From: Terriglobia bacterium
GTDB lineage: Bacteria > Acidobacteriota > Terriglobia > 2-12-FULL-54-10
Length of the DNA: 64,000 nt
Reading direction: 5' to 3'
NCBI GenBank assembly: GCA_965198025.1
Contig: OZ240237.1
Location: 1,400,577 to 1,464,576 of the forward strand
Notes under the pieces: generated by a model
The model's input: only the letters and a program-made list of their open reading frames with translations
Database searches by the model: none
Told to the model about the DNA's origin: nothing
Shown: piece by piece, positions 20,040-22,229 of the stretch
Layout of the letters: the number at the start of each line of letters is the position of its first letter
Numbering within the stretch: position 1 is the stretch's first letter
Translations under genes and position numbers: made by a program

Positions 20040-22229
20040 CTAGAACGCCTCCGGAAGATGAAACGTCAGGATAGCGTTCAGGGTTTTGTCCGAAACGATC
20101 ACGTTCCCGTTCTTGGCGTCTACGGCGATTCCGCGCGCATCCGACAACAGACCGTTCGGTCCGCCGATGGTATAGCGCGGCGGCGCATTTCCGTTGTCGA
20201 AAACGCTCCACACCCCCACGTAATCCTCCGGCAGGTATCTTCCCCCCGGACGGACGGCGGCGAAAATCATCCCGCTCTCCGGATTGGTCGTCAACAGCGA
20301 AGCTCCTTGGGCCCCCTCGCTCGAAATGAACCGGAGCGGTTTGGCCATGCCGGAAGCCTGGCGGTCGTAAATGGCCAGCCCCCTTCCCGAGACGATCAGC
20401 AGATCATGAACCGGGTCCACGGTCAGGCGGCTGGCGCGAATTCCGGAATTCAGTCCCCCGAGAATCCGGATGGGAGCGGTGTCTCCATCGGCATCGCGTG
20501 GAAAGACCAGAATTCGGTCAATTTGCGGAACGAAGATCTCCCCGTGAATCCAATCCACGGCCAGCGCCTGGGGGTTCTTTAACTGGGTGCTCGGACCGAA
20601 TATCTTGCGAACAGGCGCGACGTTGCCGTTGGCGTCGCCTCGGAAGGTAAGGATGGCATAGGCGTAGAACTGCGGAACCACGATTTCGTCGGTGACCGGG
20701 TCATACGCCATGTCGTGCATGGTGCGTGCAAACAAGGTATTCTGGCCGGCGATCTCTCGGGTGGGCTGTGCTCCTCCATTCGCCATCCTGGCGAATGCCG
20801 CAACCTGCGGATGGCCCACTCAGTTGGCGACAAGAATTTCTTCTCGTTTCGAATCGTACGCCACCGTGTGTGGATTGCTGAGCTTCGGCGAGGGCGCCGA
20901 CGTGGGCCCGCTCCGAATCACGCGGATGGGGGGTACGTTTCCGCCGGCGTCGATCGGAAAGACCGTGGCGGAGTGGCTGCCGAAATTAGCGACCCACAGT
21001 TCATTGTTTTGCAGGTCCACCGTGACTCCGGTCGGGTTCTTGATCATTGTCTGGGGCCCCTGAAGGACACGGATCGGCGCCACGTCCCCGTTCGCATCCG
21101 CCGAAAACACGATAACGGAGTCGCCCGTGTCGTTGGCCACAAAGATCTCGCCGCGCTCCGAGTGTGATGCCAGCGCCGTCGGCCAGTCCAACTGCGTCCG
21201 GGGACCCTGGATCACGCGGAGCGGAGCGGTGTCACCCTCGGCGTTCTTGGAGTAGACCGTTATCGAGGCTGGATCGATCTTGCCCGAGCCCGGAAATGCT
21301 CGCCGTCGCCCCACCGGGTAGTCCGGCCGGTCGACGTTGCCTCCTCCTCCCCCTTCTGTAAGCGGCGGACGCACATTGTACGTCCCCCAATTGGACACAA
21401 AGATCTCGTTTCGCCGCGTGTCTAGCGTGATGCCGTGTGGGTCGGCCAGTCCCGTTTGGTCTCCCTGCAGAATCCGCAGCGGTGCATCATCGTCCTGGGC
21501 GTCCTTGGCGAATACCACCACGGCGTGATCGTCCTGGATCGTGAGGAATAACTCCCGTTCCTCTTCGTCTGCCACAATGCCGAACGTGGTATGCGGGGTC
21601 CGGAGTTTCTTTTTCGGTGCCACGTTGCCCCGGGCGTCGCGGCCGAACACCGGTATCCAGTTCATTGTGTCATTGTTGACGCCGAAGATGTCGCCGGTGG
21701 CCGGATCGATATAGATGCTGCACGCATATTCGAGAAACGTTGCTGAGCCGCCGATCATGCGCTTCGGTTCGCTCATCGAGGCCGCAGCAGGCGTATTCTC
21801 CAGCCGGTCGTAGACCAGAATCCGCGACAGGTTTTCCTCCGCCACGACCACTTCGTTCCGGATGGGATCGACAGCAATGCCGGCGAATCCGAAATGCGGG
21901 TCCGTAACCGTATAGAGAGGATCCCGCTGCCGGATAGCTTCTCGCTGCTCCTCGCTCGGACGGGCCGGAGCCTCTGCGCTGGAGCCTTGCGGATAGAGCG
22001 CCGCCGCCAGACTGGAGGAAGCGCTGGCGGGAACCCATTCGCACATCTCCCCATTCATTTCCGGCATGGCTTCCCAGGAAACCAACCGGTCGGCGCCGAA
22101 TGCCGAGGTCTGCCGTGCCTTCTGATTGCCGGATAACACCAGCAATCCGGCAATTCCCAGCATGCAAAGACCAGCCAGCAGCCCGGTCCTCCGAAACGAA
22201 AATCTGTTTCGAACTGTCTTCAAAGCCAT
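20040..22229 (-). CDS. Exported NHL-repeat beta-propeller protein with in-frame UGA at codon 470; candidate selenoprotein (729 aa)
   Basis: ORFs 20820..22325 and 20040..20819 are contiguous and in frame, separated only by TGA (20820-20822); the repeat unit continues across it (EILVAN-U-VGHPQVAAF); N-terminal hydrophobic helix; RBS AAGGGGG before ATG 22229. Confidence 0.75.
20761..20819 (-). promoter_or_regulatory. Candidate bacterial SECIS element
   Basis: mRNA after UGA: GUGGGCCAU-CCGCA-GGU-UGCGG-CAUUCGCCA-GGA-UGGCGAAUG-GAGGAGCACA-GCCCAC; two perfect hairpins with G-led loops, closable by GUGGGC/GCCCAC. Confidence 0.6.

Follow-up and report, generated by a model that had tools for sequence, protein, structure and literature searches.

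The consensus for the bacterial selenocysteine insertion sequence (bSECIS), as set out in the main text of a 2026 review (PMC13188914), is a single stem-loop with a loop of 3–9 nucleotides (nt), an upper stem of 4–16 base pairs (bp), a distance of 16–37 nt from the UGA codon and a minimum free energy (MFE) of ≤−7.5 kcal/mol. According to the same text the loop has a G in its first two positions and mostly reads N1-G-[G/U]-N-N2, with N1 and N2 paired (PMC13188914). In Escherichia coli fdhF, SelB binds a 17-nt upper hairpin that is located 11 nt from the UGA and contains a bulged U17 and the loop residues G23 and U24 (PMC8659212). We analyzed a 64,000-nt stretch of DNA from a Terriglobia bacterium (contig OZ240237.1, positions 1,400,577 to 1,464,576), referred to below as the window. 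It contains a gene for an NHL/β-propeller protein in which an in-frame UGA is followed within a few codons by two adjoining hairpins, the proximal one designated hairpin 1 and the distal one hairpin 2. An earlier note on this DNA had proposed a functional SECIS right after a selenocysteine (Sec) UGA, possibly in a branched form, and had left open which of the two hairpins acts. We hold with good confidence that the UGA is a Sec codon of the propeller gene, that hairpin 2 is a canonical SECIS and that hairpin 1 is a second helix maintained by selection. All coordinates of the element are window positions on the minus strand.

The propeller gene extends from 20040 to 22325 on the minus strand and encodes 761 residues, with the UGA (20820–20822) at codon 502, as defined by the read-through open reading frame (ORF), Pfam matches and homologues. 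Under translation table 11 the gene is split into two ORFs in the same frame, 20820–22325 (501 amino acids) and 20040–20819 (259 amino acids). The read-through protein matched the Pfam NHL repeats (3.9e-16) and the lactonase 7-bladed propeller (4.7e-10), and reads EILVAN-U-VGHPQVAAFARMANGG around the UGA, with the core VAN-U-VGHP. Database homologues span the site. In the best 120 full-length homologues the residue aligned with the UGA is Cys in 119 and Trp in one. A tblastn search of the source genome with the read-through protein recovered 27 paralogues (L014–L040) with 38–65% identity to the window copy, and TGA was present at this codon in all 27. The tblastn match contains exactly one in-frame stop in 26 of the 27, and two in the paralogue at C1:1137684–1139966. 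One relative in another genome (G112) likewise has TGA at this codon. The Cys residues of the homologues, the TGA codons of the paralogues and the Sec machinery of the genome (described below) argue that 20820–20822 is a Sec codon within a single 761-codon NHL β-propeller gene, with Sec as the predicted residue. The Trp-containing homologue (P0089) carries downstream the signature FARMAK, which is that of UGA forms; its Trp may reflect a TGA translated under another genetic code or a recent change from TGA to TGG.

Further members of the family were collected from genomes and metagenomes. One genome per species was scanned with a 34-protein alignment, and 78 loci were recovered; the site was located in 75 of them, three of which had two sites. 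With one spurious regular-expression match (L049, position 271) dropped from the count, 71 of the 78 sites were TGA and seven were TGC. These loci were labelled mostly as Acidobacteria/Terriglobia metagenome-assembled genomes (MAGs), along with MAGs of Verrucomicrobiia, Binatia, Planctomycetota and Gemmatimonadaceae. A metagenome scan with the pattern N-[U/C]-V-x-H-P-Q-I provided 120 stretches among the matches listed, 118 of them long enough. Among these listed matches, 97 passed the family filter (93 TGA, three TGC and one TGT), five likely members failed it (four TGA, and one TGC in which the frame was lost after the site), and 16 were unrelated chance matches. Pooling and de-duplication on the 60 nt from the codon resulted in 183 UGA forms (27 from the source genome, one from G112, 67 from genomes and 88 from metagenomes) and 11 Cys forms; some counts, namely the codon entropies and those on the outer stem, were made over 184 UGA forms. 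The predominance of Cys in the protein database (119/120) as opposed to that of UGA in DNA (71/78 sites in genomes, and 93/97 among the metagenome matches listed) fits the splitting of UGA forms by gene callers. For annotation this means that, among the best 120, the full-length proteins in the database are all Cys forms but for the one with Trp, yet the UGA form dominates in DNA. A phylum-wide protein search around the source genome (G000), in which two candidates were scored per genome, found the family in two of 401 genomes (G000 and G112) at E ≤1e-30, a result that says little about its distribution.

The RNA downstream of the UGA begins with a single-stranded 9-nt spacer, GUGGGCCAU (+1 to +9; 20811–20819). 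Hairpin 1, CCGCA-GGU-UGCGG (20798–20810), follows with 5 bp and a triloop that starts 14 nt after the UGA, at −5.3 kcal/mol. Hairpin 2, CAUUCGCCA-GGA-UGGCGAAUG (20777–20797), is a perfect 9-bp helix of −11.8 kcal/mol. From the UGA it is 22 nt to the start of the stem and 31 nt to that of the loop (20786–20788), and there are no unpaired bases between the two hairpins. Farther downstream, GCCCAC (20761–20766), the 3′ half of a proposed outer stem, is complementary to GUGGGC (20814–20819). Thus the hairpins, their spacing and the GUGGGC/GCCCAC complementarity described in the earlier note are all present on the minus strand. When the 49 nt from the UGA were folded, both the MFE and the centroid structure consisted of exactly the two hairpins (−19.0 kcal/mol). 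The two hairpins also appeared in an 86-nt fold of the window sequence, although the outer stem had no place in that MFE structure. Within the spacer, the wobble positions of the Ala codon at +2 (entropy 1.43) and the His codon at +3 (0.92) are free. At +1 (20817–20819), outside both helices, Val is nonetheless encoded by GUG in 168 of 184 UGA forms (entropy 0.55), a constraint that may reflect a context effect on termination versus Sec decoding.

Hairpin 2 has all four bSECIS features, as given in the main text of the review, in 175 of the 183 UGA forms and in none of the 11 Cys forms. Its 3-nt loop and 9-bp stem lie within the size ranges of that text (as do the 3-nt loop and 5-bp stem of hairpin 1), and it has the loop G flanked by a paired N1 and N2, in this copy A and U. 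The distance of 31 nt is the same in 183/183 UGA forms, with no indels, and the energy is at or below the threshold in 175 of them. By the same text, hairpin 1 at 14 nt is too close to the UGA; its energy reaches the threshold in 0/183, and the full set of bSECIS features is found for it in 0/183. The earlier note had observed that the second loop is in the usual range, which stands, and the choice it had left open falls on hairpin 2. Other properties expected of a SECIS are also found: the genome has the Sec machinery, the UGA is aligned with Cys, and the structure is kept in UGA forms only. We therefore consider it very likely that hairpin 2 is a functional SECIS, with SelB as its predicted ligand, a view for which the comparative evidence is strong.

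The conservation of hairpin 2 differs sharply between UGA and Cys forms. In the UGA forms all nine pairs are present in 125 sequences, eight in 45, seven in 11 and six in two. The 11 Cys forms have two to seven of the nine pairs, so that at least eight pairs are found in 0/11 as against 170/183. Loop 2 is GGN in 173 of 183 UGA forms (GGU 79, GGC 75, GGA 16 and GGG 3; A-GGA-U in this copy), and the remaining 10 have G-U pentaloops, either CGUGN (seven) or AGUUC (three). In 171 of 180 UGA forms the loop-supplying Arg codon is AGG, a codon that makes up 5.5% of the Arg codons in the long ORFs of the genome. Codon entropies within hairpin 2 are 0.05 (+10, GCC), 0.35 (+11, AGG) and 0.31 (+13, GCG), versus 1.3–2.4 for four-fold degenerate codons in the flanks. 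This freezing of synonymous positions was repeated in a pattern-independent subset of 95 sequences. In one Cys form (L091) the identical peptide FARLAD is written as TTC GCG CGG CTT GCT GAC, and the helix is impossible with these codons.

Base pairs of hairpin 2 also covary. Columns 27 and 45, the wobble bases of codons +8 and +14, pair as AU in 48 sequences, CG in 44, GC in 30 and UA in 19, that is, in all four Watson–Crick combinations. Their mutual information (0.92 bit) is the highest of all column pairs; the others are ≤0.32. Switches on both sides were also found at pairs 30–42 (CG to UA) and 31–41 (GC to CG). Pairing between the wobble bases of codons +8 and +14 (20796–20798 and 20778–20780) ties the amino acid at +14 (D/N versus E/K) to the choice of synonymous codon at +8, and the RNA structure visibly dictates the protein sequence. 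The comparison of UGA and Cys forms suggested in the earlier note thus showed hairpin 2 to be conserved and covarying in the former and kept with at least eight of its pairs in 0/11 of the latter.

The two-helix structure was evaluated on an alignment (A3) of the first 150 of the 183 UGA sequences. Pairing was observed in 94.7% of cells, compared with 31–51% when the partners were slid. Eight pairs had double-sided changes, and 0/500 shuffles reached any of five measures. A 28-sequence set containing the paralogues of the source genome and the G112 relative agreed with the A3 pairing result. In synonymous-codon resamplings of the window copy, hairpin 2 formed with 9/9 pairs in 155 of 20,000 and hairpin 1 with 5/5 pairs in 667 of 20,000. 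The earlier note had named equal frequency of the hairpins in codon-shuffled sequence as an outcome that would count against them; the specific pairings proved to be rare.

Comparison with the described systems shows both likeness and difference. Hairpin 2 agrees with the bSECIS model, in the form given in the review text, in lying in the coding region just after the UGA and in its A-GGA-U loop, 9-bp stem, 31-nt distance and energy. The model is a single stem-loop, whereas at this locus a conserved 5-bp hairpin occupies the spacer and abuts the SECIS stem. With the fdhF SECIS the element shares an intragenic stem-loop after the UGA, a structure starting ~9–11 nt after the UGA, and an apical loop with a G and U/G resembling the SelB contact of fdhF. 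However, the hairpin at that position here, hairpin 1, has no bulge and usually no G[G/U] loop, and the SelB-type hairpin starts only at 22 nt. The element is therefore not an fdhF-type minimal SECIS: hairpin 1 is unbulged and has GGU in just 14 of 183 sequences, and hairpin 2, a perfect helix, differs in both position and the bulged U.

Hairpin 1 is conserved in a different manner. All five pairs are present in 126 of the 183 UGA forms, four in 52 and three in five. Its loop is GAU in 142, AAU in 24, GGU in 14, AGU in two and CAU in one. The fdhF-like GCAGGUUGC of the window copy arises because Val (GUU) is encoded where most members have Ile (AUU). The likeness to the apical loop of fdhF that the earlier note had pointed out is peculiar to this copy and a few relatives. 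The codons of the two arms are nearly invariant in UGA forms: Pro at +4 is CCG in 181 of 183 (entropy 0.09) and Ala at +7 is GCG in 177 of 179 (0.10). Entropies are 1.3–1.8 at Pro and Ala codons of the flanking sequence in these genes, and the His +3 wobble just outside the helix is free, as noted above. Ile at +6 is AUU in 138 of 167 UGA forms, compared with 28% of Ile codons genome-wide. In the 95 pattern-independent sequences CCG was found in 93, GCG in 89 and all five pairs in 64. Among Cys forms, GCG occurs at +7 in five of nine (against 176 of 178 UGA forms in this comparison) and AUU in three of 10 (Fisher p = 4e-5 and 6e-4 versus UGA forms, values inflated by relatedness). Compensated variants include CCGAG-AAU-CUCGG in a divergent paralogue (L038), CCCCA-GAU-CGGGG with a G-C to C-G swap (L185), and CCGCG-CAU-UGCGG (L094). 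We consider it likely, if a little less so than the SECIS function of hairpin 2, that hairpin 1 is a selected structure. As its wobble positions are nearly frozen, it is probably a conserved accessory helix and not the SelB site.

Several observations weigh against the interpretation as a whole. The energy of the single sequence is unremarkable: the 49-nt fold has z = −1.83, with 12 of 200 dinucleotide shuffles as good, the 86-nt fold has z = −1.45, with 16 of 200 shuffles as good, and 35% of 3000 synonymous-codon resamplings reach the same energy. The case against chance therefore rests on conservation and covariation. The sequences are homologues and not independent samples, so that counts and Fisher tests make the case look stronger than it is. 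Selection of the metagenome set relied on a pattern in which part of the hairpin 1 5′ arm and loop is fixed, and the Cys-form controls number only 11; a pattern search for more of them in 401 genomes in the phylum of G401 returned only G401 itself. Loop 2, at 31 nt, is farther from the UGA than the SECIS loops of five other genes of this genome (20–26 nt). As for hairpin 1, true covariation is scant (6 of 750 cells of A3 were double-changed), RNAalifold predicts two of its five pairs, and all five pairs form in three of 11 Cys forms, including both QPRI-type copies. This last result indicates that part of the hairpin 1 pairing follows from the conserved P-Q/R-I-A peptide encoded by GC-rich codons.

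These hairpin 1 results are what would be expected if hairpin 2 alone were the SECIS and hairpin 1 a functionless by-product of a P-Q-I-A-A peptide written in GC-rich codons (CCG CAG AUN GCG G). The peptide HPQIA is conserved in Cys forms as well, and both codons are common in the genome, CCG accounting for 49% of Pro and GCG for 36% of Ala codons. Peptide and base composition do not readily explain why the arm codons have entropies near 0.1 when flanking Pro and Ala codons of these genes vary freely, why the arm positions are constrained but the neighbouring +3 wobble is not, or why GCG at +7 and AUU at +6 are far commoner in UGA than in Cys forms. Two divergent paralogues keep hairpin 1 with other letters, L185 has swapped a pair, and few synonymous resamplings restore all five pairs. 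We regard the by-product explanation as unlikely.

An arrangement like that of E. coli fdhF, in which SelB would bind hairpin 1 as the SECIS and hairpin 2 would be auxiliary, is very improbable. It would account for the 9-nt distance between the UGA and the start of hairpin 1, which is near the 11 nt of the E. coli upper stem-loop (PMC8659212), for the GGU loop of the window copy and for the frozen wobble positions of the arms. Yet the hairpin 1 loop is without G[G/U] in 169 of 183 UGA forms and, by our count, without any G in 24 of 183; the hairpin has no bulged U and also forms in three of 11 Cys forms. Its 5 bp, its energy, its 14-nt distance and its score of 0/183 against the bSECIS consensus of the review text set it apart from the five other SECIS of the genome, which have stems of 7–8 bp and loops 20–26 nt from the UGA. 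Finally, it is scarcely credible that the UGA is a genuine stop codon or a lesion in a pseudogene, with the hairpins serving as a CsrA/RsmA-type GGA site, a terminator or an attenuator. Table 11 does split the gene, loop 2 is GGA in this copy, and RsmZ is the only sub-threshold Rfam hit of the region. Against this, the UGA recurs at the same codon in 27/27 paralogues and 183 distinct sequences with frames intact on both sides, other forms have Cys at this position, the genome has the full Sec machinery, just 16 of 183 sequences have GGA as loop 2, and the window sequence has no U run after the hairpins.

CsrA/RsmA-binding hairpins have a conserved GGA in the loop. This candidate identity for hairpin 2 was rejected on the loop counts given above (GGA in 16 of 183, GGU in 79 and GGC in 75). 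Searched with Rfam at E up to 10, region 20650–20900 had a single match, RsmZ (E = 0.088), whose 16.2 bits fall short of the gathering score of 44. The GGA loop, itself not conserved, is the probable cause of this match. At the gathering score, Rfam release 15 contributed no SECIS family to the window.

If the preferred interpretation is correct, with hairpin 2 as the SECIS and hairpin 1 as a selected helix, SelB-GTP carrying Sec-tRNA(Sec) would, with the UGA in the A site, use its C-terminal winged-helix domains to bind loop 2 and would compete with RF2 in delivering Sec. Of the 22 spacer nt, 13 are taken up by hairpin 1, which adjoins hairpin 2 without a gap. For this reason we propose that it would fold the long spacer away and perhaps stack on the SECIS stem, which would place the base of the SECIS ~9 nt from the UGA in space. 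We suggest such a role as a spacer or stacking helper tentatively, rating it somewhat below an even chance; alternatives are a role in pausing, a role in anti-termination, or none. It is also possible, although the balance tilts slightly the other way, that the two hairpins constitute one bipartite SECIS outside the single stem-loop consensus, perhaps coaxially stacked, with Sec insertion dependent on both helices. The base of such a SECIS would sit ~9 nt from the UGA at the mRNA entrance of the ribosome. The helicase site of the ribosome lies ~11 nt downstream of the first P-site nucleotide, and a site at that distance would leave both helices intact with the UGA in the A site. Should the bipartite reading hold, a very large family, represented by 27 paralogues in this genome alone and found in several phyla, would need both helices for Sec insertion.

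Two additional helices were considered and rejected. The outer stem GUGGGC/GCCCAC is complete (6/6) in 10 of 184 UGA forms, these being the window copy, two paralogues and seven close relatives, and is absent in G112. Its mean pairing is 61%, compared with 27–50% for slid partners, it shows no covariation and it falls outside the RNAalifold consensus. The incompleteness and the lack of covariation rule it out as a conserved feature, and the branched variant that the earlier note had entertained, which requires this stem, is not borne out. A long-range helix between CCAUCCGC (columns 9–16) and GCGGAUGG (columns 40–47) was discarded as well: at least 90% of sequences have A at column 44, whereas its partner, column 12, varies between U and C, and the column that covaries with column 45 is 27 instead of 11.

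The source genome, a single contig of 3.76 Mb, contains the components of Sec incorporation. A tRNA-Sec was found at 72.4 bits and was called tRNA-SeC with anticodon tca by ARAGORN. SelB was identified by its EF-Tu domain 2, SelB β-barrel and winged-helix (SelB-wing) domains 2 and 3, and SelA by a match of 475 bits. Hairpin-plus-open-frame scans with a Pfam check uncovered five further selenoprotein genes, a list that is probably incomplete. A Pfam domain spans the UGA in four of them, and the fifth, selD, was matched by TIGR00476.

The first of these genes (L244, G000:C1:338487) encodes an AhpC/TSA protein with a DsbD_N domain, has the motif TDW-U-PYC and carries the SECIS GCAGCUC-GUG-GAGCUGC, with the loop 21 nt from the UGA. 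A PCYCGC-family gene (L245, G000:C1:3653972; GIT-U-ALC) has UUGCGCU-GGA-GGCGCAA at 23 nt, a thioredoxin-like gene (L246, G000:C1:1384539; SNF-U-LGC) has GGCCCAU-CGUGC-AUGGGCU at 26 nt, and a second AhpC/TSA gene (L247, G000:C1:3071089; FTAG-U-TEEL) has GGAUAUCA-GGC-UGAUAUCC at 23 nt. The selD gene (L248, G000:C1:2894042), itself UGA-containing (KAAG-U-ASKL), has GUCCAAA-GGU-UUUGGAC at 20 nt. The stems of these five SECIS are 7–8 bp and start 13–19 nt after the UGA. Hairpin 2 resembles all five in stem length and in its G[G/U]N type of loop, in the comparison that the earlier note had proposed. Their loops are GGU, GGC, GUG, GGA or CGUGC, and the CGUGN and AGUUC loops seen in some propeller genes belong to this G-U type as well; the difference lies in the distance of their loops, 20–26 nt versus 31 nt here.

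A second tandem arrangement in this genome was seen in selD (L248:61–93), where a 5-bp helix (UGAGC...GCUCA) takes in the UGA itself and directly adjoins the SECIS hairpin. The thioredoxin-like gene also has a small helix ahead of its SECIS, and in MFE folds of the five genes only these two showed one. Two other genome-wide approaches were abandoned. A codon-usage score on both sides of every TGA was too noisy, giving 368 candidates that were mostly antisense and recovering 18 of the 27 known paralogues. The narrow motif CCAGGNTGG, placed 20–40 nt after an open in-frame TGA, matched 25 family members and five stretches of non-coding appearance, and was useless for other families. The selenoproteome of the 3.76-Mb genome thus comprises at least 32 genes (27 UGA paralogues and at least five others) and is dominated by a single propeller family with a common SECIS design.

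Full-text literature searches, together with term searches of the texts of PMC13188914, PMC12013277, PMC13326102 and PMC9312934, brought up no selenoprotein of NHL, propeller, lactonase or YncE type. One BSepDB supplement file, whose text may be incomplete, likewise had no propeller, NHL, lactonase or YncE entry. Hairpin 2 is thus an element of a known kind, a canonical bSECIS, in an uncatalogued family, and it is in the conserved tandem helix that a new variant could lie.

By comparative evidence, then, the apparent stop of the propeller gene is a recoding site, with hairpin 2 as the RNA element that very likely drives the recoding. The 183 natural variants amount to a mutational map of fixed and covarying bases for engineering or predicting bacterial SECIS, and the alignment shows the peptide F-A-R-[L/M]-A-[D/N/E/K] to be dictated by the RNA. 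The element also offers a clean test case for whether a spacer helix tunes the distance from the UGA to the SECIS.

A nearly invariant Cys was noted in the 34-sequence alignment at residue 95 of the read-through protein (about 22041–22043 of the window), near the N-terminus in the motif C-[E/Q]-W; it is a candidate partner of the Sec residue. The ATG at 22325 overlaps the upstream gene by 32 nt. For this reason the true start of the propeller gene is perhaps downstream of it, and a later Met (e.g. MALKTV...) may be the start of the selenoprotein. The overlapping gene (22294–23997, minus strand) encodes a CarboxypepD_reg and Vgb_lyase-like propeller protein and may form an operon with the selenoprotein gene. 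A tRNA-Leu gene (24252–24338, minus strand; anticodon cag) is the sole Rfam or ARAGORN match in the window.

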